Origin: a virus
IMG/VR virus record: IMGVR_UViG_3300023499_000220
Location: 113,645-177,644 of that record
DNA length: 64,000 nucleotides
Reading direction: 5' to 3' (one strand)
The translations under genes and the position numbers were made by a program. The notes under the pieces are model-generated. The model had not been told where the DNA came from and searched no databases. It was given only the letters and a program-made list of their open reading frames with translations. This document shows positions 5,628 through 39,200 of this stretch, one piece after another (the stretch's first letter is position 1; the number at the start of each line of letters is the position of its first letter).

Positions 5628-5816
5628 TTACGCGGGTACGCGTACGCAAGAATAGTGGCAAGCTCCACAATTCAGGAACTTTGCCCGCTTCATCGCCTCA
5701 TCCAAGCTGAACCGCGTCGCTTCGTTAATGTTGGCAGTATCACTCTTACACTCTACGTAAAAACGCACATCTCCAAAAAACGGGTCTTTACGGCTTAGCG
5801 CATACATATTTTCCAA
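5628..5816 (-). CDS. small Cys-containing hypothetical protein (62 aa)
   Basis: Intact ORF. A decayed paralogous copy of its N-terminus lies at about 6365..6400. Confidence 0.35.
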   Translation of the reverse strand: MENMYALSRKDPFFGDVRFYVECKSDTANINEATRFSLDEAMKRAKFLNCGACHYSCVRVPA

Positions 5817-5845
5817 AATAAGTCCTCCTCAAATATATTTCTCTC

Positions 5846-5925
5846 AGAACTTCTCGAATTCCTCGCTCGGCATCTGTGCTTTCGCTTCATCCAGCAGTCT
5901 TTTGTAGGAATCGCTGGAAACATTT
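5846..5925 (-). pseudogene. C-terminal remnant of a paralogue of the 253-aa gene at 6403..7164
   Basis: The minus-frame translation VSSDSYKRLLDEAKAQMPSEEFEKF* matches the C-terminus (SSDSYERLLDETEAQMPSEEFEKFWERYI) of the downstream gene, but no upstream part of that gene remains. Confidence 0.5.
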
Positions 5926-6285: not shown

Positions 6286-6402
6286 GCTTTCATCTCCTTC
6301 TTTTTGTCTTCAGCGATGACTTTTTGGAACACGTTAATGTTGGTGGTATCGCTCTTACGCTTTACGGCTCAACACATACATATTTTCCATAATAAGTCCT
6401 CC

Positions 6403-7164
6403 TCAAATGTACCTCTCCCAGAACTTTTCGAATTCCTCGCTCGGCATCTGTGCTTCTGTTTCATCCAACAGTCTTTCGTAAGAATCACTGGAAACATCGG
6501 TGCCAATAAAATCGGCAACGGCATCATGACCGCGCTGCATCAAAGCGTCTTTCAGAATCGCCCAACGGCATTCGTGAATGGCATCATCCAGCGTTTTGTT
6601 GCCATCAGGCTGCCAATACTCGCCTGTCTGCTGAATTCTATAAAACTCATCCAGCGCATCATCAACATTGTTTTCGAGAAGAATATCGTCAATAAAATTG
6701 ACAGGATAATCCTTGCCGTTGATTTTCACTTCTGCATAACTGAAACAGTCGTCGTCACACGGCATTGCTGCGCATGTGACATCGAAAATTTCGTGCGTTT
6801 CCTTGTTTACCTTGCAAGGCAACTGAAATGTTGCTCCGGACTCGAAACAAGAAAAGACAACCGCTTCCTCAACATCGTTGTCGGGGCACTTTGCAGACTG
6901 GATAAATTCCGGCATGGACAGCACATCAATACTCTCCCTTCGGTCACCCATGGCAGGATAAACCTTCATGATTGTATAACCATCATGCTGCAGCTTTCGG
7001 ATAGCACGGCACAGGTCGAGATGCATTTCATGAAGACTGATGCCACTGCCTCGTCCGTCTTTTTTGGTATAGATTTCGACAACTACATCTTCAGAGGTGG
7101 TCTGAACAACATAATAAGTCTTATCATTACAAATCTTAAACATAGCACTTATCTCCCTTCTCAA
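6403..7164 (-). CDS. hypothetical protein (253 aa)
   Basis: Intact ORF. Its 3' end is duplicated at 5846..5925. Confidence 0.4.
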   Translation of the reverse strand: MRREISAMFKICNDKTYYVVQTTSEDVVVEIYTKKDGRGSGISLHEMHLDLCRAIRKLQHDGYTIMKVYPAMGDRRESIDVLSMPEFIQSAKCPDNDVEEAVVFSCFESGATFQLPCKVNKETHEIFDVTCAAMPCDDDCFSYAEVKINGKDYPVNFIDDILLENNVDDALDEFYRIQQTGEYWQPDGNKTLDDAIHECRWAILKDALMQRGHDAVADFIGTDVSSDSYERLLDETEAQMPSEEFEKFWERYI

Positions 7165-8383: not shown

Positions 8384-9094
8384 TTATGCGAGCATGGGAT
8401 ATATTTCTTTCTTTACCGCCCTCATAAGAGCGGCAGCATGTGCGGCGTTTTGTGCATTGCCAACACCTGCGCGAGATATTTTTGGATTCACACGCTCAAT
8501 GAAATTTTTCTTATACGGAGCAGAAATGCTCCTTGCAGCATCGATAATCTGTTTCATGTTTTCAGCGTCGATTTTTTGCTGAACGCATAATTTTTGTAAC
8601 CGTGTGCAAAAAGCGTCTTTGTTGTCCCGTACAGAAGTAGAATGATTTTTTGTTTCTTTATGTGGGATGACTGCCTCACAGGCTATCCGTTTAACGCTTA
8701 ACCCTTTACTGCACATGGTCTGAATAAGCCCGTCATATCCCTTGTCTGCCGACACGATGATATAATTGCTTTTCTTTCCTGTTGTGCAAAGACTACCAAG
8801 TTTAGCAACAACGTGGAAATCCATGCTGTTTTTCCCTGCATTGGAGACGCAGAACTCTACTTGGTTGACTGGGTACTTTGCCAGAAAAACCTGCAATTCT
8901 TTAAGTGACATGTATGTGGCTTCCGGACCGATGAAGATAATCAGCTTGTCCTTTTTGGTTTTAAAATGCACTACATTTAGCCATTTCTTTTGGACATTCT
9001 CGGTATCTATCAGCCAAACGGTTCGAGTGCAGCTCACACATTTCACCCCCACACTTCGGTGACTTTTCTGGGGATTCCGTGCTTGTCGATACAC
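8384..9094 (-). CDS. NYN/PIN-like nuclease domain protein (236 aa)
   Basis: WLIDTENV, LIIFIGP and IIVSADKGYDGLI resemble the acidic-residue motifs of the NYN/LabA fold. Confidence 0.4.
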   Translation of the reverse strand: MYRQARNPQKSHRSVGVKCVSCTRTVWLIDTENVQKKWLNVVHFKTKKDKLIIFIGPEATYMSLKELQVFLAKYPVNQVEFCVSNAGKNSMDFHVVAKLGSLCTTGKKSNYIIVSADKGYDGLIQTMCSKGLSVKRIACEAVIPHKETKNHSTSVRDNKDAFCTRLQKLCVQQKIDAENMKQIIDAARSISAPYKKNFIERVNPKISRAGVGNAQNAAHAAALMRAVKKEIYPMLA

Positions 9095-11360: not shown

Positions 11361-12332
11361 TCAGAAGACTTCGTCAAGTTTTGCACATACAATAAAACGA
11401 GTATCGTAATTATCACTGCCTGAACAGGTGGACAAAATCAAAACCTTATCATTCAATCCAACTTCTGTGGCGTACTGATTGTAAGAGTAAGCTTTCATAC
11501 TTGCAATCTCTGTCAGAAAATACGAATCATCCGGATTCGCAATGGTATAACTTGGGTCAATAGGATAATCGGCAACGGCAAAGATTTTCCATCGTGTCTG
11601 TTGTTCACCCAAAGTAAGATAAATATACCGATGTTCCTTTGCAAAGTTGACATCGCGAAAGTATTTCAAAACACTGAATTTCTTGTGCATACTATTTCCG
11701 TTGCTATGTCCAAAAATAACAGTTACTCTGTACATATCGTCAACATTGCTGACATTCCATTCGGAGGGAACAAAATAAGCGCCCCAGATACTTTCCCTAT
11801 CGAACTCATTGTGAGTCAGGTAATAATCATCGTCTGTGGGATGCTGCAAAATGGGCTCATCTGTAACATCAACGCCGGGAACAGTTAAGTAACCAACGGT
11901 GTTCTTGGAATACGCTGGCTTTGGTGTTGGTTCCGGTTCTGAATCACTCTCACTTGAATTAGAAGACGGGATAAGAATCGAGGGAGTAGAAACGGGTTCT
12001 TCTACATCGTCGGAGATGTTTCCTGTCTCATATGCAGGGATATGATAGTAATCATACGCCTTCCATCCAATATAGCCAATCATGGCAATAAGAACGATGC
12101 AAATTACGACCAACAAAACTGTCCAGATGGAAAATCGCCGTTTCTCTTTGCCCTCTGACACGTCCATCGCATCCATCGATTCATTGTCATCCTCGTCATG
12201 GCTTGCCTTTTGATGAGGGAAGTTTTCACCAGTTCCATCATCCTCATCATTTGGAATGTAATTGTACGCACCAAGTTCCTGTTCGAAATGTTCTTCTTCG
12301 GGCAGTGGTGGAATAATAGGTGTTTTTGCCAT
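11361..12332 (-). CDS. srtB: class B sortase (323 aa)
   Basis: N-terminal membrane anchor. SrtB-type VGYLTVPGVDV motif. Catalytic triad: His in IFGHSNG, Cys in LILSTCS, Arg in YDTRFIV. Confidence 0.75.
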   Translation of the reverse strand: MAKTPIIPPLPEEEHFEQELGAYNYIPNDEDDGTGENFPHQKASHDEDDNESMDAMDVSEGKEKRRFSIWTVLLVVICIVLIAMIGYIGWKAYDYYHIPAYETGNISDDVEEPVSTPSILIPSSNSSESDSEPEPTPKPAYSKNTVGYLTVPGVDVTDEPILQHPTDDDYYLTHNEFDRESIWGAYFVPSEWNVSNVDDMYRVTVIFGHSNGNSMHKKFSVLKYFRDVNFAKEHRYIYLTLGEQQTRWKIFAVADYPIDPSYTIANPDDSYFLTEIASMKAYSYNQYATEVGLNDKVLILSTCSGSDNYDTRFIVCAKLDEVF

Positions 12333-12343
12333 AATACATCACC

Positions 12344-13507
12344 TTACTCAGCTGCGGCAGACCGCTCGTACACATCAATGCAGTAGTTGCCCATAATCTT
12401 GTTGTACATGCACTCCTGTGCCAAAGGACCTGCCCCATAGGTATCAACGGCGTTATCGTAGTTACCGCCAATATAAGCTTTCACTTCATCGACAGACGGT
12501 TTATAGTCCTGTTCCTCTGCCAGATACTGCGCAACAAGGCTCAGTAAAACATTTTCTTCCGTCTGACTACGAAGACTTTCTGAATACTCCTCCGAGGTCT
12601 TATAATTGCTGTATGTCTGAACGAATGTCTCCAAGTCCATATTGTAGGCAGTTGCTTCGTTTTCGACATACTTCAAGTTGGTTTCAAGACTCAGGTTGAC
12701 AAGGTCTGTCGTATCCTTTTTGAGTTTTACATTGTCAATGAAATACTGTTCAATCTCATTCTGAATCTTATTCATACGAAGATTCTCTTCAACATATTCA
12801 CGAAGCAGGTCTACTGTAGTTACAGCAGTGCCGTCTTGCAGCTTGTAGCCACTCATGATACCGGCAACATCAGCATCTGTCATGCTATATTGAGAAATCT
12901 TATTAAGCGTTACATGGAAAACAGCTTCCTTGTTGGCGAGCTCGATAGTCTGCTCGCCTGTAGTTCTATCTGTTGTACTGCTATATCCATCAGGGAATGT
13001 TACCGTAACATCAAACGAATCCCCCGTGTTATGCCCGACGATTTGCTCTTCAAATCCGTCAATAAAGGTATTGGAACCGAGTTCCAAATCGTAGTCTTCT
13101 GTTGTTCCACCGGTAAAAGCAACACCATCAACCGTACCCTCATAGTCAATGTTCACAACATCACCTTCCTGTGCGGCGCGGTCTGTTACCTCTGTCGTCA
13201 GCTTGTAATTGGACTGAAAATAATCCAACTCGCTTTGAATCTCCTCGTCTGTAACGGCGTATACATCTTTGCTGACCGTATACTTCTTATAATCCTTGGG
13301 CATCTTTATGTATTTGGACGCAGTCACATCACGAAAATACCCGTCATCATCAAGACCGAGGTCATACTCAACAGCGGAAGCTGTTTCGGAGGTGGCTGTT
13401 TCCGCAGTCTCAGATGCACTTGTATCGGCCGTATCTTTACTGCACGCGGTCAATGCAATACATGCGGCACTGATGACTGCCAAAATCTCTTTTGCATTTT
13501 TTTTCAT
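12344..13507 (-). CDS. secreted lipoprotein with trigger-factor-like FKBP-type PPIase domain (387 aa)
   Basis: Signal peptide plus lipobox ALTAC. The stretch GDVVNIDYEGTVDGVAFTGGTTEDYDLELGSNTFIDGFEEQIVGH closely follows the trigger-factor PPIase-domain consensus. Confidence 0.65.
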   Translation of the reverse strand: MKKNAKEILAVISAACIALTACSKDTADTSASETAETATSETASAVEYDLGLDDDGYFRDVTASKYIKMPKDYKKYTVSKDVYAVTDEEIQSELDYFQSNYKLTTEVTDRAAQEGDVVNIDYEGTVDGVAFTGGTTEDYDLELGSNTFIDGFEEQIVGHNTGDSFDVTVTFPDGYSSTTDRTTGEQTIELANKEAVFHVTLNKISQYSMTDADVAGIMSGYKLQDGTAVTTVDLLREYVEENLRMNKIQNEIEQYFIDNVKLKKDTTDLVNLSLETNLKYVENEATAYNMDLETFVQTYSNYKTSEEYSESLRSQTEENVLLSLVAQYLAEEQDYKPSVDEVKAYIGGNYDNAVDTYGAGPLAQECMYNKIMGNYCIDVYERSAAAE

Positions 13508-13565
13508 AAAAAAACTCCTTTATAAAAAAGACCCCGGCAGACAGGTTGCCTACCGGGGCAGTATT

Positions 13566-13817
13566 TTAAACGAACAGGAACGGAACGTGAAGCAACAGAG
13601 CGTATGCCGCATCCATAATGCCAATAATAACGGCGGATACAGCACTCACAACAAGAACTGCTCCGGTTCGATGGAGCGTGTTGTGCATACTCGGCCAAGT
13701 CACATTTTTGGGTGCAACCAAATTGTGAAGCTTCTTAGGCGTGCTCTTGACGAAAGAAGGAATTGCCTTCACGAAATTCGCAATAGCCGTTCCTACCTTT
13801 TTCAGTTTATCTTTCAT
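13566..13817 (-). CDS. secE: SecE-like translocon subunit (about 84 aa from MKDKLKK; ORF extends to 13883)
   Basis: KNVTWPSMHNTLHRTGAVLVVSAVSAVIIGIMD matches the SecE consensus (KKVsWPtrkE..t..Vi...i...lD) with a single C-terminal TM segment. Its start overlaps the SecG stop by 4 nt. Confidence 0.65.
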   Translation of the reverse strand: MKDKLKKVGTAIANFVKAIPSFVKSTPKKLHNLVAPKNVTWPSMHNTLHRTGAVLVVSAVSAVIIGIMDAAYALLLHVPFLFV

Positions 13818-14068
13818 GCCGCACCTCCTACTCCGGTTACTACGAACATGATGATTGCAATAACAAGCAGAATAGCTGTACATACAGCAACCAGTTTATT
13901 TGCGGACGTTTTCGTGCTGTCTTTAGCACTCGAGCGCATTGTATCACTGATTCCGGTGATAACACTAAGACTGTTCTTGTCGGCCTTATCCATGGAAAGC
14001 GTAACCGCACAAACCAGAACAGAAACCAACAGAATCAAGATGCACAGAATGATTTCATAAATTGCCAT
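13814..14068 (-). CDS. secG: SecG-like translocon subunit (84 aa)
   Basis: Two TM helices flank a loop LSMDKADKNSLSVITG, comparable to the SecG LQssKsaGLSGAisGG loop. Immediately follows secY. Confidence 0.55.
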   Translation of the reverse strand: MAIYEIILCILILLVSVLVCAVTLSMDKADKNSLSVITGISDTMRSSAKDSTKTSANKLVAVCTAILLVIAIIMFVVTGVGGAA

Positions 14069-14083
14069 TGTGTTGCCCTCCCG

Positions 14084-15424
14084 TCAATTCAAGAAACCCT
14101 TGTGATGGCGAACCACCAAATGGCTGTTAAGAGAATCGATAACTTCAAGCGTAACACCTGTGACAATCAACAGACTGGTACCGCCAAAGTGCATGTTCAG
14201 ACCTGTAACCGCAGTTGCCAAGATAGGCACACATGCAATAACCGAAAGAACAAATGCTCCCGAACCGGCGAGAGAATGGCAAGCATTGCGCAGATAATCA
14301 CTGGTAGCTTTGCCTGCTCGAATACCGGGGATACTGCCGCCGTTCTTGCGCAGGTTGTTTGCCATTTCGATGGGGTCGAATGTGATGTCGATGTAGAATA
14401 AGTTGAATGCGAAAATCAGGGCTACATACGCAACATCATAAATCCAATTCCGCGAATTCCAAGATGCCAGCGCCATATACAGGCTGGGGTGCTTGTTGTA
14501 ATCGAGGAACATCGTCACGAGAGACGGCATACTGCAAATGGTGGACGAGAAAATAATAGGCATAACACCCGACATAATCAGTTTGATGGGGATATAACTG
14601 GACTGACCAGTGGATGCTTTGTTCCCTACATTTTTACCGGCATACTGAACAGGAACGCGGCGCTCTGCATCGCTTGCGAAAACGACATAGAAGGTGGCCG
14701 CCAAAACAAAGAGGATGACGCCGGGAATCATCAGATAATACCACCATCCATTTTCTTTGCCCATTGCAATAGAGTTCTGGAACAACGAGATGACAGCATC
14801 CCATCTGGAAATGATACCGGTAAAGATGATAAGGGAAATACCGTTGCCAATACCTTTTTCGTCAATCAGCCATCCAAGCCAGATGACGATTTGAGAACCA
14901 GCAGTCAGAATGGCAATAACAGTAATGGCTTCCACGACCTGCGAAATGCCGGAAGTGTATTTCATCGCACCGTAGTTCTTCATAATAAAGAAGTACCCGA
15001 TAGCTGTTACGACCGCCAAACTACAACCAACATACTGCGTGATTTTATTGATTTGCTTCTGCCCGCCGATGTCCTTGCTGATTTCTTCCAGTTTCGGAAT
15101 CGCAACAGTCAAAAGCTGGATAATGATGCTTGCGTTGATGTATGCAGATACGCCAATCGCAAATACCGCACACTGAGAAAGTGCGCCACCGGAAACCAGA
15201 TTGTAATAATCCAGTACAGAGGTGCTTCCGAACATAGTCTGAAGCGCAGCGGTGTTTACGAACGGAATCGTAATACCGCAACCCAGACGATAAATCAGAA
15301 GACAAAGGATGGTGAAGAGAATCTTGTTGCGAACATCATCCACCATCAGCTTCTGAAAGATGGTGCTGTTCGAATAAGACTTTTTGAGTTTCGGCTTTTT
15401 CGCCGGATTTTTAATGTTGTCCAA
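14084..15424 (-). CDS. secY: SecY paralogue (accessory preprotein translocase channel, 446 aa, TTG start)
   Basis: Clear SecY signatures: ASIIIQLLTV, GIGNGISLIIF, PGIRAGKAT, FGGTSLLIV. Not part of an rplO-secY-adk operon. Confidence 0.9.
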   Translation of the reverse strand: MDNIKNPAKKPKLKKSYSNSTIFQKLMVDDVRNKILFTILCLLIYRLGCGITIPFVNTAALQTMFGSTSVLDYYNLVSGGALSQCAVFAIGVSAYINASIIIQLLTVAIPKLEEISKDIGGQKQINKITQYVGCSLAVVTAIGYFFIMKNYGAMKYTSGISQVVEAITVIAILTAGSQIVIWLGWLIDEKGIGNGISLIIFTGIISRWDAVISLFQNSIAMGKENGWWYYLMIPGVILFVLAATFYVVFASDAERRVPVQYAGKNVGNKASTGQSSYIPIKLIMSGVMPIIFSSTICSMPSLVTMFLDYNKHPSLYMALASWNSRNWIYDVAYVALIFAFNLFYIDITFDPIEMANNLRKNGGSIPGIRAGKATSDYLRNACHSLAGSGAFVLSVIACVPILATAVTGLNMHFGGTSLLIVTGVTLEVIDSLNSHLVVRHHKGFLN

Positions 15425-16961: not shown

Positions 16962-17008
16962 AAATTTCTCCTTTGACTAAAAAGCAATGTTTCGCTTGGA
17001 ATATTTAT

Positions 17009-19208: not shown

Positions 19209-19888
19209 TTTGAATCACCGCCTTCGCCAAATCCGTCCAAAAAGACAAGATTTTCTTTTGTGTGTTTCTTTTTTTGTTCAATAACTTCTTTTTCAGCTTC
19301 TTGTTTGACTTTATCGTACGCTTCCAACGGACTCATAGAAGGTACTGATTTCTGCGTATCAGCAGGGACGATAGTATCATCGTTTTTGACGGCTGTCGTT
19401 ACACGACTGCAGGTTACGAGATTTCTGTCATTAAACGCAGTTACGCCATCCTCATTTGATTTAAAAATAAAGTCATACATAGCACCAACGAAGAAAGAGT
19501 TTTTAACGTTTTTCTTTGATTCGTTGACGCTGAGGAAAAAATCGTATTTTCCGTTTTTGTCGATAAACTCTCCATCCTCATTGACAGGGATGATTCGATA
19601 GGTTGAAATCTGCTGGCGAATCATATTTTTGCTGGACTCATCGGATACAACAATTCCCTTAACAGTCTTATACCGTTCATTTTTTTCATCATTATGAATC
19701 TCATAAATTTGAAAAATAAAATAAGCGGCGCACATCAAGCCGATGAGAAGAATCTTCCACTCCTGCATTACAACAACACCGAAAATAGAAGCAATCAAGA
19801 ACAGAATAGCGATAAGCCCATTCTTCACATACATAGATGTGATAAGAGATTTGCAATCCGGATGATAAATCTTAGACATTTTATTCAC
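19205..19888 (-). CDS. membrane protein (227 aa)
   Basis: Two TM helices near the N-terminus. Confidence 0.4.
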
Positions 19889-20942
19889 CGCCTTCTACGT
19901 TAGAATCTTTATCTGCGCTGTTTGTCGTACTGGCAGACTGTAAAATGCTTGCACCCTGCTCATTCAGAACATCCTCGATTGTCTTGTCGCGTAGTTTAAT
20001 GCTGGACAAGACGACATCGTAAGACTCCCCAGACGAAGTAGTTACCCGTGCGATATATTGAATGGTCGTATCCCCCGCAAGCAATGCGCCATCTATTGTT
20101 TGCTTCTGACGATTTCCATCTTTATCTTCGGTCTCAACCACATACATATCCTGTGACGCTTTTTGTGCAGATACAGAAGACGTCATAACAATATCTCCGG
20201 CCTTCATATCAGAGGTCGCGAACTTGTTTACGATAGAACCTGTTCTATCCACAAAGAACACGGGAGTATCCTGCTGCATCTTCCCGTCGCCGTCTACGAA
20301 ATGCGAACCGCATAAGGATTCGTATTCGTTGACACTCAAAGTCTTATAGCTGAGTTCTGAATCCTCGATGGTATCCCCGGAAGGAATATCCACATTTACG
20401 ACAGCAACTTTATATTCTCCGGTAAGCTGTCCACTGATTTGGACCCAGTTTGTGTATACGAAGAAGCCAATAGCGATGGCGACAACGGCAACAATGAACA
20501 TTGCGATACCGATATTACGCTTGTTATTGTTTTTAATGATTTGTGCCTGTTCTAGGATTTCCTTACTGGCATGCTTAGTATCTTTAAGCGTCTGGTTTGC
20601 TTCATCCAGTGTATCGCTTGTCTTTGTAAGCACTTCGTAAGCTTTGGTCTCTCTATGGCCGACATTCACATTCAGCCCTTTTGCGCCATTGTTGTTGGCA
20701 GACTTTGCATTGTTATATTCGGCGCGAAGCGTTTCCACAACGGAATCGTCAAGCGTCATCTGTTCCCCGTTGGGCAGAATTACCGTACCATCATCATAGA
20801 CATCGAAAACACGTTCCTTGCCTTCATACATGGCGCGTACCTGACCGATAACGTAATGTTCGTTCATGTTTATCACACCCCTTATCTCTTGTACTTTTCG
20901 AACACCTTGCGCGAAGGAGCTCTCGGGCCGCACATCTTGCAC
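19881..20942 (-). CDS. single-pass membrane protein with possible SAF/CpaB-like domain (353 aa)
   Basis: The TM segment FIVAVVAIAIGFFVY is followed by YKVAVVNVDIPSGDTIEDSEL, which resembles CpaB/SAF. Weak. Confidence 0.35.
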   Translation of the reverse strand: MQDVRPESSFAQGVRKVQEIRGVINMNEHYVIGQVRAMYEGKERVFDVYDDGTVILPNGEQMTLDDSVVETLRAEYNNAKSANNNGAKGLNVNVGHRETKAYEVLTKTSDTLDEANQTLKDTKHASKEILEQAQIIKNNNKRNIGIAMFIVAVVAIAIGFFVYTNWVQISGQLTGEYKVAVVNVDIPSGDTIEDSELSYKTLSVNEYESLCGSHFVDGDGKMQQDTPVFFVDRTGSIVNKFATSDMKAGDIVMTSSVSAQKASQDMYVVETEDKDGNRQKQTIDGALLAGDTTIQYIARVTTSSGESYDVVLSSIKLRDKTIEDVLNEQGASILQSASTTNSADKDSNVEGGE

Positions 20943-21376
20943 TTTTTACTCTGCTCAACATAATCAATGAGCATCTGACGTTCCCATTCAAGGTATTCGT
21001 CCATATTTTTTTCTTTCCATGAATCGAATTTGCCGTATGAAACACCGAGATAACTGGCGAATATGCTGACAGCATTCAGCATATAATCATTCGGGATTAC
21101 AACCCTTTTCCCGTCCAGATTGTAAGCATGTCCCGTAGTGATTTTGTTTCTTGTCTGTCCTATCTTCATTCGCCTCGTTTCTGTGTTCTTCTTTACCTGA
21201 GTTTCTCTTCTTAGGGTACTGCAGGACTTGCAATATTGAGTATTTTTGGCGGTAGAATAAAAAATTCTGCCGCATTCCTTGCATTTGCGTTCGTACGTTA
21301 TGGTTTTAGGAGTTGTACTTTGTTTTTGGGTTTCTGTATGGTTGCTGTTTTCAGAAGTACAATGATTCCGAGCCAT
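20882..21376 (-). CDS. zinc-ribbon protein (164 aa)
   Basis: CKECG...CKSCS and CKMCG motifs. Confidence 0.4.
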   Translation of the reverse strand: MARNHCTSENSNHTETQKQSTTPKTITYERKCKECGRIFYSTAKNTQYCKSCSTLRRETQVKKNTETRRMKIGQTRNKITTGHAYNLDGKRVVIPNDYMLNAVSIFASYLGVSYGKFDSWKEKNMDEYLEWERQMLIDYVEQSKKCKMCGPRAPSRKVFEKYKR

Positions 21377-21392
21377 AATCTGTACCTCTTAT

Positions 21393-22454
21393 TTAAACGC
21401 GAGCGTCAATCAGGCAATTCAGCAGCCCGTTCGCGTCACAGCCAAACAATAAGCATCCGAACACACCAATGGCATGTCCTTTTCTGGTAGAGAATGTTCC
21501 TGCCGTAACACCAAGATGCCCGGCAATCTGCTCATCTGTCCAGTTGTACTTTTTCCCCTCAATCATTGCAAGGATAACGTCATAATAACGTTGACCAAGC
21601 GGAAACTGTTTCATGATTTCGACAGCCCCTCGTATGAGTTTCACATACTCCACAATGAGATAGGCATCGCTTCTGTTTTTATCAGAAACTTTGATTTTAC
21701 TCAAATCTTCGTACGAAGAAGACCCAAGCAGCTTCATGGCGGGGTCCTTTGACCGTGAGGCACGATACAGAATACGCGTGTATTCCGTAAGGAGCAGCGG
21801 AACATTATGATAAAGGCTTGCTTCTTCTACCCCGTCCACATCACTGCTTGTCATCAGGATTTTATAATATTCCTTGATAACACTACCTGCTGTATTGTAA
21901 ACGGATTCAATGCACCGCTCGCAATACTTCATGATTTTGATGCGTCCATTCTTCGGAAGAACGGCGGGATTCAAAAAGCAATCAAACACCTCCCGCATGC
22001 TGGAACAATAATCGACTTCGTACAAGAGTTCTAACCGCGACTCCTCAATGGCGTCAAGAAGCATCTGACAACTTTCGAAGTATTCTTTGCGTTTCCTGAA
22101 ATGCAAAGACTCTTCCTCAATGTTCGGAGCCAGCCAGCTCTGAATACGGCGCAAACGGGAAATGGCTTCGACATCGCACATCTCATCGTCGTGAACGTTT
22201 TCACAGTTCTGCATCATGACATCAAGGTCTTGTGCCTGCATCATCCATTTGAGTGCCGGATACAATATCATCAGAACAGCCGCTTCTTTCAGTTCCGGCC
22301 GCTCTTCCACAACACGGTTTACGCACTTTGTCAGCACATAAGAATTGGGGATGTCTCCGCCAAAACTTCTACGCAGAACAATGTTGTCCTGCATAATAGC
22401 ATCGAGCAATGCGTAAAGCTGCTGTTCTTGGGCTTTATTCAATGCTTCGGACAA
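21393..22454 (-). CDS. divergent sigma-factor-like protein (353 aa)
   Basis: The C-terminal LGQRYYDVILAMIEGKKYNWTDEQIAGHLGVTAGTFSTRKGHA fits the sigma-70 region 4 HTH pattern (RxVfxLrxxeGxsxxEIAxxLGxsxgTVKSRlhRA). Confidence 0.4.
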   Translation of the reverse strand: MSEALNKAQEQQLYALLDAIMQDNIVLRRSFGGDIPNSYVLTKCVNRVVEERPELKEAAVLMILYPALKWMMQAQDLDVMMQNCENVHDDEMCDVEAISRLRRIQSWLAPNIEEESLHFRKRKEYFESCQMLLDAIEESRLELLYEVDYCSSMREVFDCFLNPAVLPKNGRIKIMKYCERCIESVYNTAGSVIKEYYKILMTSSDVDGVEEASLYHNVPLLLTEYTRILYRASRSKDPAMKLLGSSSYEDLSKIKVSDKNRSDAYLIVEYVKLIRGAVEIMKQFPLGQRYYDVILAMIEGKKYNWTDEQIAGHLGVTAGTFSTRKGHAIGVFGCLLFGCDANGLLNCLIDARV

Positions 22455-22894
22455 TTTGCCTTCCCTCCTTTCGCAAGATTCGTTTCAATATGAATATGTG
22501 TGTTATCATGTACGGTTTCGGACAAAAGGCCACTATAATGGAACATGACCTTGTACTTCTTTGCGCTACAGGCATATTTGAGTCGTGCCCAAAGGTCTTT
22601 GTTATGACTGGGCTCAGTATCGCCGTCCTCTACGCCAAAAGAAGCTCCAGTACGCGCAATCGCATTATCGCTGCTGAATACGACAATCTGAGACCCTGTT
22701 GGCAAACCGATGTTCTCGATAATGCGGCAGAGCTCTGCCAATTTCAGCCTTGTATAACCAATTGGAGTAGCCATAAAATAAGTATCCTTCTGTCTATCCG
22801 ACTTGGCGGAAGGATTTACGACAAAACTGTGAACGCACACCTCCCCATTCAGTTCCGGCGTTTTGACGATATCAAGATAAATAATAGCGGCCAT
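22439..22894 (-). CDS. RNase H-like protein (151 aa)
   Basis: The ordered acidic residues (IYLDI, LAELC, VFSSDN, DLWARL...HYSGL) are compatible with RNase HI. Confidence 0.35.
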   Translation of the reverse strand: MAAIIYLDIVKTPELNGEVCVHSFVVNPSAKSDRQKDTYFMATPIGYTRLKLAELCRIIENIGLPTGSQIVVFSSDNAIARTGASFGVEDGDTEPSHNKDLWARLKYACSAKKYKVMFHYSGLLSETVHDNTHIHIETNLAKGGKANCPKH

Positions 22895-22920: not shown

Positions 22921-22949
22921 TTGACTTTTTCGCGTTTTTGTGGTATTAT
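22921..22949 (+). promoter_or_regulatory. Family-B promoter copy on the plus strand (TTGACT-17-TGGTATTAT)
   Basis: ttgact-ttttcgcgtttttgtgg-tattat. Drives the plus-strand gene 23049..23711. Confidence 0.5.
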
Positions 22950-23048
22950 ATAAGTGCAGTAAAGGTATAATTTATATTACCGGTTACAAAGATTGTTGTT
23001 TTCGGTAATTATATAAACTTGTCTGTTAAACCAAGCAGGAGGGAAATT

Positions 23049-23711
23049 ATGAGTAACAATATCAACAACAACCACGAATCGGTAGAGAATATCTTCAATG
23101 CTTTCTTGATGGGAGGTAAAATGAACACTGCTTCCAAGCAAGAACGGGCAAAAATTGTAGATACCTTTATGGAACAGGCAAAATCTTGCTTTGTTGACAC
23201 GGAGAATACCGTGAAATATCTGAATGTTCTGATGGAACGGACGAGACTCCGTTATGGGTTTACCGCTGATGAATTTGCAGCAATGTTGGGATACAGCAGC
23301 ACTGCCGCTTACAACAAGACATTCATGCAACCAAATGCAAATTTTGGAACTGTAGTATTTCCTTATGTGGTTCAGTTTTGCTATCTGTTTGGCTATAATT
23401 TGTCAATTCCTGATTCCGTGTCTGCTCCGCAAACAGTGGCAGACCTATACTCTTTGGAACTGGCTTCTTTTCTGATTTCTCTTGGCCCCGATGCAATGGA
23501 TGATATTTCAAGAACATTGGTCGGTGCCGAATACCTTGACCCGAATTTAAGAAAAACAAGTTCTCAAATACTTTCAAAGGCAAAGAAATACTTCTATGGT
23601 AATGATGGTGAAGCGTTACCCAATGAAGTTCAGTACCGCAACAGATTAGATAACGCTGAGAATAAGATTAAGCGTCTCGATAAAATAGAGAAAGCCAATC
23701 ACGACAAATGA
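23049..23711 (+). CDS. hypothetical protein (about 221 aa from the ATG following AGGAGG)
   Basis: Strong ribosome-binding site aggaggg 7 nt before the ATG. One of only two plus-strand genes. Confidence 0.5.
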   Translation: MSNNINNNHESVENIFNAFLMGGKMNTASKQERAKIVDTFMEQAKSCFVDTENTVKYLNVLMERTRLRYGFTADEFAAMLGYSSTAAYNKTFMQPNANFGTVVFPYVVQFCYLFGYNLSIPDSVSAPQTVADLYSLELASFLISLGPDAMDDISRTLVGAEYLDPNLRKTSSQILSKAKKYFYGNDGEALPNEVQYRNRLDNAENKIKRLDKIEKANHDK

Positions 23712-24176
23712 TTAGCCGCCAAACATATCGGCTAACTGTAATGCAAGCATCGCTTCTTCTGAAATAGGAGGCGGTGCTTCTTCTGTTTTGGGAGTTGTGT
23801 TGATGGTTTGTGTGTCTGTAATGTTTTGGGGGGAGTAATTTGAAGCTGGCGCAGCTACCGCAATCCCGTTTTTCTGAATGCTGCTTGTCACTGCATCTAC
23901 AATCTGAGGAATACAGCTTCTGATTTCTTCTGCTATTGTGTTTTGCAGTTCCTCTTTTAAGATGGACTGCGCTTCTTGCATCTCATGTTGTTTTGTAGCC
24001 TTGTCGATTATAGCATTCACAACCGCATCGGTTTTTCCGCCGCGTTGCAAACTGTTCAGATAATCATATACAAGTACATGATTGTCTTTGCTTAAATCAA
24101 AAACAAGTGTGGTTCGTACCGTCGTGCCAACGGTCTCTTTTTCTGTTTCATTCTTTTTGGGACGTCCACGCGGCAT
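23712..24176 (-). CDS. parR: ParR-like centromere-binding adaptor (154 aa)
   Basis: Immediately downstream of parM. N-terminal AT-hook-like GRPKK and a ribbon-helix-helix-like segment TLVFDLSKDNHVLVYDYLNSL. Confidence 0.45.
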   Translation of the reverse strand: MPRGRPKKNETEKETVGTTVRTTLVFDLSKDNHVLVYDYLNSLQRGGKTDAVVNAIIDKATKQHEMQEAQSILKEELQNTIAEEIRSCIPQIVDAVTSSIQKNGIAVAAPASNYSPQNITDTQTINTTPKTEEAPPPISEEAMLALQLADMFGG

Positions 24177-24209
24177 TCAGTGCTCACCACGCTTTCGAAA
24201 ACGGTGCTC

Positions 24210-25169
24210 TTAAATTTCACCGCTCATGGTCAGCTTTGCACGAGCCATGATTTCATATCCTTTTGCATTTGCGGTTACATCCGTCAAGAAGAAAAGGTTC
24301 TTGGTGTCAATGGCTCGCTCGATGCTTTCGCGCATCATAGCAGAACCACCACCCATAAAGATGAAATAGGATGTTTTGAAATCGTCCTTGATTTTTTCGG
24401 AAATCGTACGAATCAATGCTGTTGCATAATTGTCTGCGGTTTCCTTGGCAATTTTCACGGCGTTTTCATCGACCAGCATGTTGTTGTTCCCTGCAAGGAT
24501 TGCCTCAGCCATGTAGTCATCGACCGACAAGGAACAATGGACACGCAGCTCGCTCTCGACAGTGCTCAGGAGTTCAATGACTCCACGGTCATAGCTTTCG
24601 CAGAAAGAAAGGTCCGGAGCATAAGTGTTGCTGCGACCAGAGAAACGAATCACATCCGTGGTATACCCGCCGATGTCTACAACATAAGAACGGGGATAGC
24701 GCTTGATTTCCTTCTGAATCTCGCCTGCTGCCGTAATAGAAAAGCCCTGAGGATAGACAAAGACGTGCTTGACAGTAATCTCGAACGGGATATCTTTGTA
24801 CATGAAATTGATGAGTTTCCCGTTTTTGCCGAAATACTCATCATACTTCGCTTTCAGGGACATATGCTGCGGGGGCAAGCCCATCGCGAGGCATACATCG
24901 TATTTGTAGAATTTCTGATTGGGATACTTCTTTATAAGGTTCTTTGCTACGGCAATCAGCGTCAGCAAAAAGTAAGTATCATCCTTCGTCTTATCCTGCT
25001 GATAAGGCGTGCGGCTGTCATTGAGAGAATAATACTTCCCCATATAGCACATCGTCTCTCCCTTGATAGCCGGTTCAGTCGTACCGTGACGAACAAGACC
25101 AGTGGGAAACGGCTCACAGCCAGGCGTCTTCATTGCCTTGTTTCCGGTATCTACTCCAATAATCTCCAT
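24210..25169 (-). CDS. parM: ParM/StbA-type actin-like segregation ATPase (320 aa from MEIIGVD; ORF open to 25346)
   Basis: Phosphate-1 motif IGVDTGNKAMK and phosphate-2 motif VVDIGGYTTDV. GGAGG ribosome-binding site 7 nt upstream of the ATG at 25169. Confidence 0.8.
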   Translation of the reverse strand: MEIIGVDTGNKAMKTPGCEPFPTGLVRHGTTEPAIKGETMCYMGKYYSLNDSRTPYQQDKTKDDTYFLLTLIAVAKNLIKKYPNQKFYKYDVCLAMGLPPQHMSLKAKYDEYFGKNGKLINFMYKDIPFEITVKHVFVYPQGFSITAAGEIQKEIKRYPRSYVVDIGGYTTDVIRFSGRSNTYAPDLSFCESYDRGVIELLSTVESELRVHCSLSVDDYMAEAILAGNNNMLVDENAVKIAKETADNYATALIRTISEKIKDDFKTSYFIFMGGGSAMMRESIERAIDTKNLFFLTDVTANAKGYEIMARAKLTMSGEI

Positions 25170-25406
25170 AAAAAATCCTCCGAACGAGTCGCAATATAGT
25201 TGAAAGTACGAATTTTGGGATACTCTGCGTGATAAAATATAAGTGTCTACCAGATAACAATGGGACTCACTGACTGATGCATAGCGGTTGTTAAAATGGA
25301 AAGAACAACTAATATACAACTGTCTGTTGTTATCATGATACCACACATGCAGTTGTCCAGCAACGAACTTTTGTTCGCATAGGCAACAAAAAGAAAGGAG
25401 TTATTT

Positions 25407-31223: not shown

Positions 31224-32759
31224 TTATTTTATATCGCTTGCGTTTTCGTCAGGTTCGATGTGTGCATTGTCATCAGCCTTCTCGATTACAGGCAAACCGT
31301 GAATGTTGATATTGCGGTCAGTCTTAGCATTGATACTGTTCGCACGAACGATATCGGCCATATCGATACCGGTAGCTTCCTTGACGGTCTGCATGGTCTG
31401 TGCCATCAGCACGGGAACATTCCCAGACACGCCGGAAACGCCAGATGCATCGCCGCCAATGATAGACACCTTATCGATTGCGGACAAGGGCTGAGCCACA
31501 TTCTTAGCAATATCAGGCAGGACCTTGATAAGCATTTCAGCGACAGCAGCATCGTTGTACTGCTTGTAAGCTTCCGCCTTTTGCTTCATAGCTTCGGCTT
31601 CAGCAATACCCTTCTGACGGATAGCCTCAGCTTCTGCCTTACCTACAAGGGCAATACCTTCGGCTTCCTGCTGCTTTGCAAATTTCTGAGCCTCAGCAGC
31701 GCGTTCGGCTTCGTATTTTTTTGCTTCTGCTTCTTTTTGGCGTTTATACAATTCGGCATCCGCAGCTTTGCGAACCTCTGCATCCAGTTTTCTCTGCTGA
31801 ACCTCGGCTTCCTGTGCAGCAAGGTCGACCATCTTCTTCTGCTTTGCGATTTCCGCATCAGCTTCGGCTTCCTTGATTTCCTTGGCGCGAAGATTTGTCT
31901 GAATCTGTCCTGCAGCGTTGGCATCAGCAGCAGCCTTGTCAGCCTCGGCTTTCAATTTGGCCTTTGCCAGCTGCAATTCATTGTTGCGCTGTGCAATAGC
32001 AGTCTGGGCTTCAACTTCCTTTTCATTGGCTGCCATTTCAGCGTCAGCCTTTGCGCGAGCAATATCACGAGCGGCTTCGGCACGAGCAATCTCTGCACGT
32101 TTCTTGACGGCTTCTTCCTGCTCAATACCAATAGCCTCAATGACGCCGTGATTGTGACCCTGCGCATCAACGGCGTCTTTTACATCCTGCACATTGAATG
32201 TTACAACTTCGAGGCCCATCTTTGCAAGGTCAGGACGGGCATTTTCGATTACTGACAGCGCCATTTGTTTACGATTTGTGAGAATCTGGTCAACCGTCAT
32301 ATCCGAAACGATTTCGCGCAGGTTGCCTTGCAAGACATCATTTACTTTATCATTGATGCCTTTTTCGTCCATGCCAAGGAAGTTCGAAATAGCCGACTGC
32401 TGACGACCCGTAATATATTCCTTGACATCCTTTGCACCAGATGCCTGAACCTCAGAGTCGAGAACAGTAGAATTATCGCTGTATACCTGAATCGTTACAA
32501 CAGAATCAATCCAGAGCGATACGCCTTCTTTTGTCTTGACACCCGTCTCAGGGGTTTTGACATCAATTTTCAGAAGACGCATATTCAGCTTATCTGCACG
32601 CTGCAGCACAGGGATGACAAATGTACCCTTTCCACAAACGACCTTGGGCTTTTTCAAGCCGAATCCAGTCACAACGATGGCTGCTGTGGGAGGCGCTTTT
32701 TTGTAGCATGTGAATGCGAACAAAACAAACAATACGACAATGATGATTCCTAAAAACAT
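31224..32759 (-). CDS. flotillin / SPFH (band-7) domain protein (511 aa)
   Basis: N-terminal TM segment, SPFH domain, and a long Ala/Glu/Lys-rich coiled-coil (EA-repeat) region typical of FloT/YqiK flotillins. Confidence 0.85.
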   Translation of the reverse strand: MFLGIIIVVLFVLFAFTCYKKAPPTAAIVVTGFGLKKPKVVCGKGTFVIPVLQRADKLNMRLLKIDVKTPETGVKTKEGVSLWIDSVVTIQVYSDNSTVLDSEVQASGAKDVKEYITGRQQSAISNFLGMDEKGINDKVNDVLQGNLREIVSDMTVDQILTNRKQMALSVIENARPDLAKMGLEVVTFNVQDVKDAVDAQGHNHGVIEAIGIEQEEAVKKRAEIARAEAARDIARAKADAEMAANEKEVEAQTAIAQRNNELQLAKAKLKAEADKAAADANAAGQIQTNLRAKEIKEAEADAEIAKQKKMVDLAAQEAEVQQRKLDAEVRKAADAELYKRQKEAEAKKYEAERAAEAQKFAKQQEAEGIALVGKAEAEAIRQKGIAEAEAMKQKAEAYKQYNDAAVAEMLIKVLPDIAKNVAQPLSAIDKVSIIGGDASGVSGVSGNVPVLMAQTMQTVKEATGIDMADIVRANSINAKTDRNINIHGLPVIEKADDNAHIEPDENASDIK

Positions 32760-35155: not shown

Positions 35156-35860
35156 TTAGCCTACTGCAGTTTCGTCAGCAGGGGCCTCGGACTCAGCAGC
35201 AGAATCAGCCTCGGCAGTATCCTCAGAGGAAGCCTCCTCAGTGGATTCGGCGGCATCGCCATCAGTCTCGGCGCTTTCAGCCTCGCTGTCGGAAGCCTCA
35301 CTGTCAGCAGCTTCAGATTCAGCAGTGCTCTCAGCCTCGGATGCAGCCGCTTCCTCAGCAGGCACGGAGGTAGCCACCAGCAGATTGCCCTCGGCATCAG
35401 CCTGACCACAGTTGTACAGATATGCGAACGCAGCACTCAGATTGTCGAACTTGGACAGGTCAGGAACCTCAACAGTAGAACCGTCATCAGCGGTCTTGGT
35501 ACCGTCGAAATGAACGCTGCCATCCTCGTCATAGCGAACGGTGACGGTATAGCCATCGCTTGCCAGAGCTTCAGTCATATAAGCGGCATAAGCGTTCATG
35601 GTGGTCTTCATCTGGTCCTCACTCAGAGAAACACCATCGGGCATCTCAGTCAGCTTGCTGTTGTCCAGAACCTCAACTGCGGACTCACTGGTCGCGCCGC
35701 TTGCACTGGCAGCATCATCCTTCTTGCCACAACCAACAAATGCAGTGCAGGCCATTGCCATAGCGAGACACAGCGCAGCACCCTTCTTTACAGAACTCTT
35801 GTTAACCTTCTGCATGAGTAACTTCTCCTTTTTCATGTGTGTTTGATGTGCATATTTCAA
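35156..35860 (-). CDS. acidic lipoprotein (234 aa; lipobox FVGC)
   Basis: Signal peptide with lipobox AFVGC. Asp/Glu/Ala/Ser-rich C-terminus. Preceded by a ~330-nt leader containing tandem palindromic repeats. Confidence 0.5.
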   Translation of the reverse strand: MKYAHQTHMKKEKLLMQKVNKSSVKKGAALCLAMAMACTAFVGCGKKDDAASASGATSESAVEVLDNSKLTEMPDGVSLSEDQMKTTMNAYAAYMTEALASDGYTVTVRYDEDGSVHFDGTKTADDGSTVEVPDLSKFDNLSAAFAYLYNCGQADAEGNLLVATSVPAEEAAASEAESTAESEAADSEASDSEAESAETDGDAAESTEEASSEDTAEADSAAESEAPADETAVG

Positions 35861-36040
35861 TCTAACGCAACCCGTGCAGGTTGCAACTGAAAGCAGCGCA
35901 CGATGCTAGTCTATTTCAATCTAACGCAACCCATGCGGGTTGCAACAGCAAACTTACACATTTTCATGTGTGTTTGTTCGATGTGCATATTTCAATCTAA
36001 CGCAACCCGTGCGGGTTGCAACAGCAAACTTGCACAAACG
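35830..36040. repeat. three tandem ~60-75-bp repeats, each with the core ATTTCAATCTAACGCAACCCGTGCGGGTTGCAAC (an 18-bp palindrome)
   Basis: Cores at 35854..35887, 35913..35946 and 35989..36022. The flanking ttttcatgtgtgtttg(ttc)gatgtgcat and agcaaactt(a/g)caca segments are also repeated. Confidence 0.8.
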
Positions 36041-36284: not shown

Positions 36285-39200
36285 TTACTGCTTCTTTTCC
36301 TCGGTTTTATCCTCAGGCTTTTCAGCAGCTTTTTCTTCGCTATCGCCATTCTTCTTCTTGACGATGACAAATGCGCCAACACCAATCAGAGCAACAACAA
36401 CGATAACAGGAACGATAACTTCTGCGCCAAAACCAACGCCAGTCTTGTAGTTGACTACAACAGGTGCCGGAGTGGGAGCGGGTTCATTCTTGACTACAGG
36501 AGTCGGAGTCGGTCTGCTTTCTTCCGGAGGATTCTCCAGCTTAACACTTGCTACCCGAACATCACCGTAGTTGCCTGCCTTATCGACTGTACGGGTCACA
36601 ATGTAACCAGTCCAATCGGGGCTCAGCTTAAAGGTGACGTAACCGTTGTCCTTATCAATGTTTGTAACATTGACAGTCTCGAACTTGGTTTCGTCGAAGG
36701 TGTAATCGCCATCAGCACTCTTGGCAATAGCAGAACCATTGACCTTGTAATACTGAATCTTAGCGACACCGGAGTTGTACTCGCCATCCAGAGCGGAGAT
36801 AGCAGGAACGGAATCCTTGACCTTTACAACAGGCACGAAGTCGGGGTCTTCGGTATCATCCTTGCCACCGTTTTCGTCGGGAGTAGCAACGACATCGTTA
36901 CCGTTTTCATCACCGGTCTCGTCGCCGGTTGTGAAGAGAGCGGGCTTACCATGAGCAATACGAAGCGTAGTGGCTTCGGTCTTGTCATTGGTCGTTTCGG
37001 TCTTTTCGGACTCGGCGGGAACCTTCTCATCTGTACCGGATTCGGTTTTATCCTTCTTACCGGAATCTTCCTTCTTGTCGGTATCGTCCTTCTTATCGTC
37101 CTTCTTATCGTCGTCCTTTTCGGGAGCCTTGCCAGTCTCTTCACCAGTAATGAACACATTGATGGTGCTCTCGAACTTGACGAACTTCTCGTTCAGCAAA
37201 TCGGTCTTATTGGTGGAATCAACCTTATCGGCAGCGAAAGCAGAAGCAACGACAGGAGCTTCGGTATCAACAGATGTGGTGATAGTTCCCATCTCGGTAA
37301 TGGCACCGGTCTTCAGGTCAATCAGGTAATAGGTAGAAGTAACCTTCTCACTATTAGCGGAAATGACCATCTTCTCGGCCCACTCAGCATCGGTCAGGGA
37401 ATCGCTGGTTCCGATTGCGTAACCCTTAGGAGCGATAACTTCAACCTTAGAGTTGAAGTACAGGCCACTCAGGTCATCAGTCGTCTTCTTGGTAACCTCA
37501 ACAGGCTTACCGGTCTTTTCGTCAGCCACAGTACCAACGATAGTTGCGGGTTCTACATCGGCAAGATGCAGACGCTGAACTTCGAGGTCTCCGGTGGTAG
37601 GCAGGTAATTGTAGTTGTCGTAAGCGCCGCCAACATACTTGAAAGCGTCCTTCGTCAAACCAACATTACCGAAGATACCATCGATGCTGGAAGCAACAAT
37701 GAGTTCGAAGGAAGGCAGCTTAACGGTTTCAGCAGTCTCGTCGAAAGCGTAACCACTGGTCTTGATTTCGGGAATCTCCGTCTTAGTGCCATACAGCTTG
37801 ACGACGGGGTTCGGGTCGAGAGTAACCGTCAGGTCTTTACGAGCGATAACGAACTGACCATCGGCTTCGTTCTTATCGGCATCGACGACATTGATTGTTA
37901 CTGCGTAATTCTGCTCAACAGCAGCATCGTAATCAGAGGTAACGGTGTAGGTGTAAGTACCAGCGTTCTTGACGTTTTCAGTCTTGAACTGGCTGTCACT
38001 CTCCACGCCGTCATCGCCGCTTGCAATATCAGGAGTCAGAGTAGCCTTTGCATCAGCGGTCAAGGGAGCAGTCTGTGCATTGTCGGTGGTCTTGTCATTC
38101 TCGAAAGGAGTATAAACAAGCGCCATTTTCAGGCCCAGAGAATCAGGCTTGACAGCTGCACCGTGCGTACCATCGCCATTGGTGGCAACAGCATTTACGG
38201 TGAAGTCTGGGTTAGTGGTATCGCCATAGACGATATCCTTGGGCTCGGTGACAGTGACTTCGACCAGACGCTCGCCAATAGTATAAACGCCATTAACAAT
38301 CGTAATCAGGTAATCGTCATTGTCGTAAGAACCGACCATGTCGTATGCACCGTAATTCTTGACAGATTCGGGCACGCTCTCCGCAACCAGAGAAGCAGCA
38401 CCATCAGCAGACTTCATGGAAATCTCTTCGGCAACCGCATTCTCAACATCCTTCTGAGTGATGCTGATAATAGCTTTCAGGTCATCGCCATTTACGATGG
38501 TCTTCTTATCGGCATCGCCAGTATAGGTAAGAGTATTGCTCAGTTCAGCCATTTCATTGCCGTAGACAGAACCAACAGTGCCGATGGTCCAAGTCAGAGG
38601 ACGCTGAGTGACCGTGTAAGTGCCGTTCATAGCAGTTACCAGATAATCCTGATAAGAAGCCTGACCGACGCGGTGAGCCAGACCGGAGAAGGAAGGAACA
38701 ATGTCATAGCCTCCGACATGGCTTGCAGAAGTGACGAGGCACAGGTTCGTGCCTTCCAGAATATCACCATTGACCAGAGCTGCCTTGGCAGTGTCACCAG
38801 TGTATTCCAGAACGTTCACGGTACCGTAATCAGACCAATCTTCAACAGCAACATCGTCGCCATAGATAGAAGTCTGGGGTTTAGCGGTGACAGTGATGGG
38901 ACGCTTGTCGATAACAAAATCAACGGGAGCGTAAACAAAGGTGTAGTTGTTTGCTGCGGCATTCTCAACATTTGCAGGAACGACCTTGCCGGTACCAGCG
39001 TGAGAAGCTACCGTTGCGGGAGCTCCCTCAGCATCGGTGAAGTTGAAGGTCAGGTTTGCAATGCTCAGGACACCAGCATCATCAGGAGTGGTGTTGCCCT
39101 TGACGGGTTTCACAACGAATCCATCGAAAATCAGGTCGTCGCCGGAGAGAACAGGGTTCTCATCGCCGTAAATCTTGCTCTGGGGAGCCAGAGTAACATT

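Follow-up and report, generated by a model that had tools for sequence, protein, structure and literature searches.

The closest described relatives of the protein considered here are the small DUF1492/LtrB and ArpU proteins, which have been experimentally shown to activate late promoters of the sigma-A type (PMC3753634; PMC13123087). It was only in 2026 that Hodor-type conjugative megaplasmids were reported from Bacillota of the human gut, in a paper whose main text makes no mention of the present protein, of sigma factors, of regulators or of promoters (PMC12934698). By its gene content, the 64,000-nucleotide (nt) stretch of DNA analyzed here (IMG/VR record IMGVR_UViG_3300023499_000220, positions 113,645 to 177,644; hereafter the window) appears to derive from such a Hodor megaplasmid. 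At 21393..22454, on the minus strand, it encodes a 353-amino-acid (aa) protein with a helix-turn-helix (HTH) motif, and a protein identical to it was found on a 240,696-bp IMG/VR contig catalogued as viral. A preliminary description had proposed that this protein may be a highly diverged sigma factor or an anti-sigma-targeted factor. We have found that it lacks sigma region 2 and that profile comparisons point to a pair of fused modules of the late-activator type. It is most reasonable to assign the protein a role in transcription, and we lean, with no great margin of confidence, towards a site-specific activator that would work with the host sigma-A RNA polymerase and not replace sigma.

The protein family and its two modules

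The 353-codon open reading frame (ORF) lies on the minus strand. It opens with a TTG codon (22454-22452) and closes with a stop at 21395-21393, and a strong Shine-Dalgarno sequence, AAGGAGGG (22463..22470, minus strand), was read directly 8 nt 5' of the start. The N-termini of homologues line up with the same TTG in the family alignment, and the gene is real, as the relatives described below bear out. Searches of Pfam and NCBIfam with the protein gave no match at E<=10, and in PHROGs only phrog_1558, whose function is unknown, was matched, weakly (E 0.006) and over residues 209-341. In a word-indexed search three full-length relatives were recovered at 52-65% identity, all metagenomic and unannotated, and a later search of the same kind with a 52-sequence alignment brought in a fourth distinct full-length relative (P0126) and little else. 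An exhaustive HMMER profile search yielded 121 representatives at 50% clustering, 32 of them with E<=1e-30, which puts the family at no fewer than 121 clusters. The true family is a conserved protein of ~350 aa that is covered by no curated database. No relative was found in the GTDB representative genomes that were scanned, nor in curated plasmid and phage collections searched by megablast and tblastn. Apparent N-terminal fusions to Cna_B, RF3 and AAA_21 were considered as other architectures of the family and rejected as assembly chimeras, their N-termini being identical. Chimeric Logan-derived proteins occur among the profile matches (P0037, P0085, P0087 and P0094), which calls for caution in surveys of domain architecture in the Logan collection.

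Comparisons were made with the first family alignment (A1), a 52-sequence alignment of the ~350-aa family (A2), an alignment of 11 short single-module relatives (A3), a profile of the C-terminal module (A4) and a profile of RpoE (A5). An AlphaFold model built with 4 sequences was too poor for use (predicted local distance difference test, pLDDT, 59), and the model built with A2 was confident and all-helical (pLDDT 90.3; predicted template modelling score, pTM, 0.86). Whole-chain Foldseek searches of PDB and BFVD with this model gave no match at E<=0.001. In BFVD, appreciable probability (0.90-0.97) was reached only by three small proteins of phages (133-195 aa), of which one carries the name 'sigma-70 region 4'. 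The best structural matches of the protein were sigma region-4 domains, and the extracytoplasmic function (ECF) sigma region-4 structures to which it was likened are BldN (6dxo), SigW (5wuq), SigH (5zx2) and SigR (5fgm). The alignments to sigma factors span only ~57-92 residues, and isolated sigma-4 domains superpose at 1.7-2.6 A.

To compare the protein with itself, A2 was divided at residue 205 and the two halves were aligned locally with hhalign; residues 130-184 match residues 268-331 at 91-95% probability. When compared with A3, the C-half gave 99.8% probability (E 5e-29), the full A2 alignment 99.7% (E 4e-26), and residues 49-184 of the N-half 95.8% (E 8e-9) over 125 columns, that is, over nearly the whole short family. 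As judged from these alignments, a module of ~175 aa occurs twice in tandem in the 353-aa protein, the N-terminal HTH being degenerate. The C-terminal copy (residues ~206-345; 21420..21839, minus strand), which was delimited by hhalign against A3 and takes in the weak phrog_1558 match, consists in order of a YHN..LL.EY..I.(W/Y) helix, a long helix, FPxG, the HTH and an L(W/F)G motif. Its HTH is predicted to be of the sigma-4 type (21447..21599, minus strand), with helices at residues 286-301 and 306-312 and a recognition helix at 317-336. The N-terminal copy (residues ~49-184; 21903..22310, minus strand) has an invariant W69 (YPALKW) and is without ~10 residues at the place expected for the first helix of the HTH. 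The preliminary description had put the HTH peptide LGQRYY...RKGHA at the end of the protein; it does form part of the HTH, as residues 285-327, but it is not terminal, as 26 conserved residues that include the family-wide LWG follow it.

At the bottom of the profile-search ranking were shorter proteins (166-198 aa); they align with residues ~195-345 and carry both motifs of the C-half (YHN..LL..Y..v.W, and YP..G..YY.IL followed by the HTH and LWG). It is through these short relatives that the protein can be connected with known activators. Ten of the 11 belong to phrog_1558 and eight match phrog_248, 'transcriptional activator'; two of them, P0118 (28.3 bits) and P0116 (22.9 bits), pass the 21.5-bit cut-off of DUF1492 (PF07374), and four have sub-threshold matches to ArpU (TIGR01637). 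Standalone module proteins occur in phage-like contigs, and one short relative lies near ImmA-like and sigma-like genes, not a terminase; the contigs of the short relatives are very small or carry no annotation. Like LtrB and ArpU, the 353-aa protein has a C-terminal sigma-4-like HTH, is encoded by a mobile element and opens a long array of co-directional genes, and its C-terminal module is homologous to ~175-aa proteins of which some pass DUF1492 or come near ArpU. Unlike them, it is twice as large, is duplicated in tandem with one degenerate HTH, and is always paired with an RNase-H-like gene. Members of phrog_1558 and phrog_248 are likewise single-module phage proteins, whereas here the module is double. 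Two Ltr-like modules fused in tandem, one of them with a degenerate HTH, form an architecture that had not been described before.

Operon, conserved gene order and promoters

The gene lies inside an operon, since its start is overlapped by 16 nt by the 3' end of an upstream gene encoding a 151-aa RNase-HI-like partner (22439..22894, minus strand), and the downstream gene (20882..21376, minus strand) begins 16 nt past its stop with no terminator in between. The downstream product is a 164-aa zinc-ribbon protein by the CxxC pairs seen in its translation; a Pfam search with it gave no match. Upstream of the operon there is a TATAAT but no good -35 element, an arrangement that fits an activator-dependent promoter. 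A profile of the partner (8 sequences) matches E. coli RNase HI (E 4e-4), and the catalytic positions Asp10 and Glu48 are not conserved in the partner family; to judge from these residues, the partner probably has an inactive RNase-H fold.

The overlapping pair of RNase-H-like gene and regulator gene, which are coupled in translation, was found in each of the seven related elements examined (10 loci, L001-L003 being copies of one place). The conserved order around it is a DUF2325-like gene, a ~450-aa gene, an Alp7A/ParM-type actin, a ~145-aa gene, a divergent HTH gene, a ~150-aa gene and the regulator, after which SecY and SecE follow in conserved order, either adjacent or ~6 kb downstream. 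This order is kept on related contigs of 27-190 kb where the identity of the regulator is 21-56%, and so even between members that are no more than ~21-29% identical. A distant member of 307 aa, encoded on a small conjugative element with sortase, DUF3854, TrbC-like pilin, M23 peptidase and VirD4/TraG (L005, 1-14929), has retained both the divergent gene and the small overlapping one and lies just upstream of type IV secretion system (T4SS) genes. Both in Hodor-like conjugative megaplasmids and in their more diverged relatives, the regulator belongs to the syntenic core. In the window the actin gene (24210-25346, minus strand) is followed by a gene for a 154-aa protein, probably the DNA-binding adaptor of the actin (23712-24176, minus strand), and the two form a partition cassette (23712-25346), after which a terminator-like hairpin was seen at 23717-23693. 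The divergent gene (23019..23711, plus strand) encodes a 230-aa HTH protein that is a syntenic neighbor of the operon; its being a paralogue of the regulator was ruled out, as hhalign against A2 gave only 1.7%.

The two conserved promoter families that the preliminary description had noted do exist. Family A is present in the window as seven copies of TGTGGTATAATATA, against 0.23 expected, at 17006, 18529, 22939 (plus strand), 31124, 33041, 34927 and 36174 (motif TTGAC-N17-TGTGGTATAATATA). Its consensus, TTGAC-N17-TGTGGTATAAT, reads on the gene strand as TTGAC(C/T)-N17-TATAAT with TGTG in front, which is the Gram-positive sigma-A consensus with a -16 TRTG extension; the family is a near-perfect sigma-A promoter of the extended -10 kind. 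The copy at 22939 lies in the promoter of the divergent gene (22921..22952, plus strand; TTGACT-17-TATTAT with TGTG), where it is the only conserved element of that intergenic region, and family A also occurs in the diverged relatives L001, L004, L007, L009 and L010, including the equivalent divergent promoter. Family B comprises five copies of TTGCAAATTGCTGCAAAG, against 0.14 expected, at 537, 4743, 7490, 9777 and 34288, all on the minus strand and each followed by TAnAAT. It too has sigma-A-like hexamers (TTGCAA, 16 nt, TAnAAT). Its copies share the palindrome TTGCA-N6-TGCAA as well as a leader, 40-76 nt long, that is conserved (repeats D6 and D7), which gives the family the look of a promoter set under operator control; family B was not found in the 21-kb stretches of related elements. 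As both families are sigma-A-like, they do not call for an element-specific sigma, and since family A is in addition common to diverged relatives, the earlier suggestion that an element-encoded specificity factor explains the uniformity of the promoters is not borne out.

Sigma factor, activator or other role

A sigma factor needs region 2 for binding of core RNA polymerase and opening of the -10 element. In the 353-aa protein this domain of core binding, -10 recognition and melting is absent by sequence, by structure and by the duplication tests. No domain match and no sigma-2-only chain was found among its matches, and the portion that the preliminary description could not recognize as region 2 is the degenerate second copy of the module; the tandem duplication accounts for this non-sigma remainder and speaks against a design of sigma-2 plus sigma-4. 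The predicted model does contain the region-4 feature of the sigma-70 family, the HTH that in sigma factors reads the -35 element. Structure comparison, the check that had been put forward, thus recovered the fold of region 4 and not that of region 2, and the GerE-type tetrahelical HTH of LuxR and response-regulator output domains was not the best match. It had also been claimed that the HTH matches region 4.2 residue by residue, and this could not be upheld. Besides the empty Pfam and NCBIfam searches, hhalign of A2 with RpoE aligned 24 HTH columns in the correct register at 0.3% probability, A4 against A5 gave 31 columns at 3.9%, the N-half against the RpoE profile gave 0.1%, and PDB sequences searched with A1, A2, A3 and A4 returned no sigma factor. 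The E. coli RpoE sequence used was verified by 99-100% identity to RpoE-labelled proteins with Sigma70_r2 and Sigma70_r4 Pfam domains; A5 is shallow, all its members being >=86% identical, so that these negatives are weaker than those of a full HHpred run. The low probabilities indicate that the protein resembles region 4.2 in fold and register, without significant similarity in sequence.

Sigma factors of plasmids and phages do exist, for example SigN of pBS32 and the group-5 sigmas TcdR/UviA, all of which have recognizable sigma-2 and sigma-4 regions and a promoter consensus of their own. Like these, the 353-aa protein may be a factor of a mobile element that steers transcription of the element's genes, but it has neither the full sigma-2/sigma-4 set nor an own consensus: no cognate non-housekeeping promoter consensus emerged, both repeated families having sigma-A-like hexamers, and no ECF-type promoter motif was found. 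From ECF sigmas it differs in being without region 2, in its length, about twice theirs through the internal duplication, and in a sequence similarity that is not significant. A sigma factor split over two subunits was ruled out, as the partner is RNase-HI-like and gave 0.2% against the RpoE profile, and nothing points to an anti-sigma partner of the kind that an anti-sigma-targeted factor would have. For sigma-factor biology the result is mainly a negative one, in that a sigma-4 fold alone does not make a sigma. That the protein would act in transcription is the part of the earlier proposal that finds support; that it is a diverged sigma does not, with region 2 missing and the N-half a duplicate of the module.

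The explanation that we favor, by somewhat better than even chances, is an activator. The protein would be a fused pseudo-dimer of two modules related to the DUF1492/LtrB and ArpU late-gene activators, in which the intact C-terminal HTH would bind DNA at or near the -35 region of promoters and the N-terminal copy would probably stand in for a dimer partner within the same chain or offer a surface for contacting proteins. Together with the RNase-H-fold partner it would be made from one operon at the head of a long same-strand gene array, which includes the Sec translocon module and, in the distant relative, T4SS genes. The lack of a good -35 element upstream, the sigma-A-type promoters of the element, the activator homologues and the synteny were all counted for this explanation. 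Several points weigh against it. The link to characterized Ltr proteins passes through intermediate sequences and borderline scores, the phrog_1558 match of the protein itself is weak, and the protein stays under the curated thresholds of PF07374 and TIGR01637, giving no match to either. Ltr proteins are small, phage-encoded and placed before terS, and none of this is true here; within the window and the related loci, a megaplasmid context, no terminase lies near the gene. No candidate binding site was identified, and a sigma-4-type HTH could equally well suit a repressor.

Such a repressor or switch, acting at the divergent promoter region and controlling maintenance or transfer genes as other conjugative-plasmid master regulators do, is a possible but unlikely role. 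The gene does lie at a divergent promoter region opposite another HTH gene, the partition cassette adjoins, and the HTH fold alone cannot separate activation from repression. Nonetheless, the nearest characterized relatives are activators, a single intact HTH per chain suits an asymmetric site better than a palindromic operator, and the one clear palindrome, that of family B, is far from the gene. Somewhat more doubtful is a promoter-loaded antiterminator or processivity factor resembling Q, which would serve very long same-strand operons with genes of 8 kb and >19 kb. Two of the 11 short relatives weakly match phrog_79, 'anti-termination protein Q-like' (E 4e-4), nearly all genes of the window are on the same strand, and no terminator follows the gene; the similarities to Q are weak, however, and rank under the sigma-4 matches, no Q-binding-element or pause-site arrangement was identified, and strong sigma-A promoters recur along the array, so that a single very long transcript is not required.

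We consider it improbable that the protein is after all a true alternative sigma, extremely diverged, which redirects host core RNA polymerase to plasmid promoters. Besides the structural matches to region 4 and the precedents of SigN and TcdR/UviA, the single-module relatives are ECF-sized and three of the 11 have sub-threshold matches to the sigma70-ECF superfamily model; these matches are limited to positions 75-158 of the model, the linker and sigma-4, the N-half duplicates a module that itself bears sigma-4, every recognizable promoter is of the sigma-A type and the partner is not sigma-2-like. Least credible of all is a pseudo-dimeric replication initiator that acts at an origin together with the RNase-H-like partner. 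In having its DNA-binding module twice in tandem, the protein resembles two-domain Rep proteins, partition genes adjoin, and an RNase-H-like partner could process an R-loop. Hodors, however, already possess an initiator, of the Rep_3 type, and an AT-rich oriV that belongs to it (PMC12934698), for which reason this explanation was downgraded; moreover there are no iterons near the gene, the fold is that of sigma-4 and not of winged-helix Rep domains, the catalytic residues of the partner are not conserved, and the distant member is encoded within a small conjugative element, immediately 5' of T4SS genes. A last and speculative reading, to which we give little credence, is that the protein and its obligate RNase-H-fold partner are a new RNA-polymerase-directing factor whose sigma-4-like module displaces or mimics region 4 of the host sigma. 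If this were true, Hodor-like megaplasmids would control their secretion, surface and conjugation genes independently of the host while moving between distant classes of Bacillota.

The Hodor-like element around the gene

The modules by which Hodors are recognized, namely Sec genes (SecY-SecG-SecE), trigger factor, sortase B, two giant secreted proteins and ParM, have counterparts in the gene content of the window, with Pfam matches to SecY, FKBP/Trigger_C and actin-like domains. The Sec module (12344-15424) contains SecY (14084-15424, minus strand), an ORF for a small membrane protein (13566-13883) and an FKBP/trigger-factor-like gene (12344-13507, minus strand); in the relatives L001, L004 and L009 SecE is annotated at the place of the small ORF. 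Directly after the trigger-factor-like gene lies that of a 323-aa membrane-anchored protein (11361-12332, minus strand), for which a Pfam search gave no match; by its FGHS and LSTC signatures, which are sortase-like, it probably corresponds to the class B sortase that Hodors are reported to have. The two giant ORFs, of 2,672 aa (36285-44303, minus strand) and at least 6,442 aa (44668-63996, minus strand, cut by the window end), compare with Hodor giant proteins of ~2,642 and 7,309-7,704 aa (PMC12934698). GC climbs to ~0.50-0.52 over the giant-gene stretch, and ORFs of 2,213 and 3,067 aa opposite the giant genes are presumably artefacts of codon bias.

Other genes of the window with Pfam matches encode a radical SAM protein (3056-3841), an Api92-like DUF1281_C protein (4813-5610), a PIN7-domain protein (8384-9094) and a flotillin/SPFH protein (31224-32759), and downstream of the regulator there is a membrane protein with a weak SAF-domain match (19881-20942), all on the minus strand. 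Scanning the window for Rfam families and tRNAs gave no match. In the gap that separates the 2,672-aa gene from the next one, near the minimum of cumulative GC skew (~36-38 kb), three 57-nt direct repeats were seen at 35836-36027, spaced by 59 and 76 nt and each with a hairpin (GCAACCC-GTGC-GGGTTGC); a centromere, an origin-like site and a processing site are all possible identities for them. A 138-nt direct repeat of 88% identity (5786-5923 and 6360-6497) has a spacing of 574 nt that the shorter repeats D11, D18 and D19 share, and the region looks like a local duplication. Diverged relatives carry tRNA genes (L007 14863-17066; L008 17771-17845; L010 16294-20665, n=8), L007 also a tmRNA, and among the genes of these relatives are further ones for reverse transcriptase, HNH, RNase H and Dam as well as an AcrVA2-like gene. 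From this cargo, Hodor-like elements seem to be much more diverse than the two groups that have been described.

In such elements the 353-aa protein is the best candidate so far for a dedicated transcription regulator of Hodor-type megaplasmids, and its modules link the small late activators of phages to a 350-aa plasmid family that lies outside curated databases. Should the Sec, giant-protein or conjugation modules prove to be under its control, it would offer a practical handle for studying or switching plasmids that are uncultivated.
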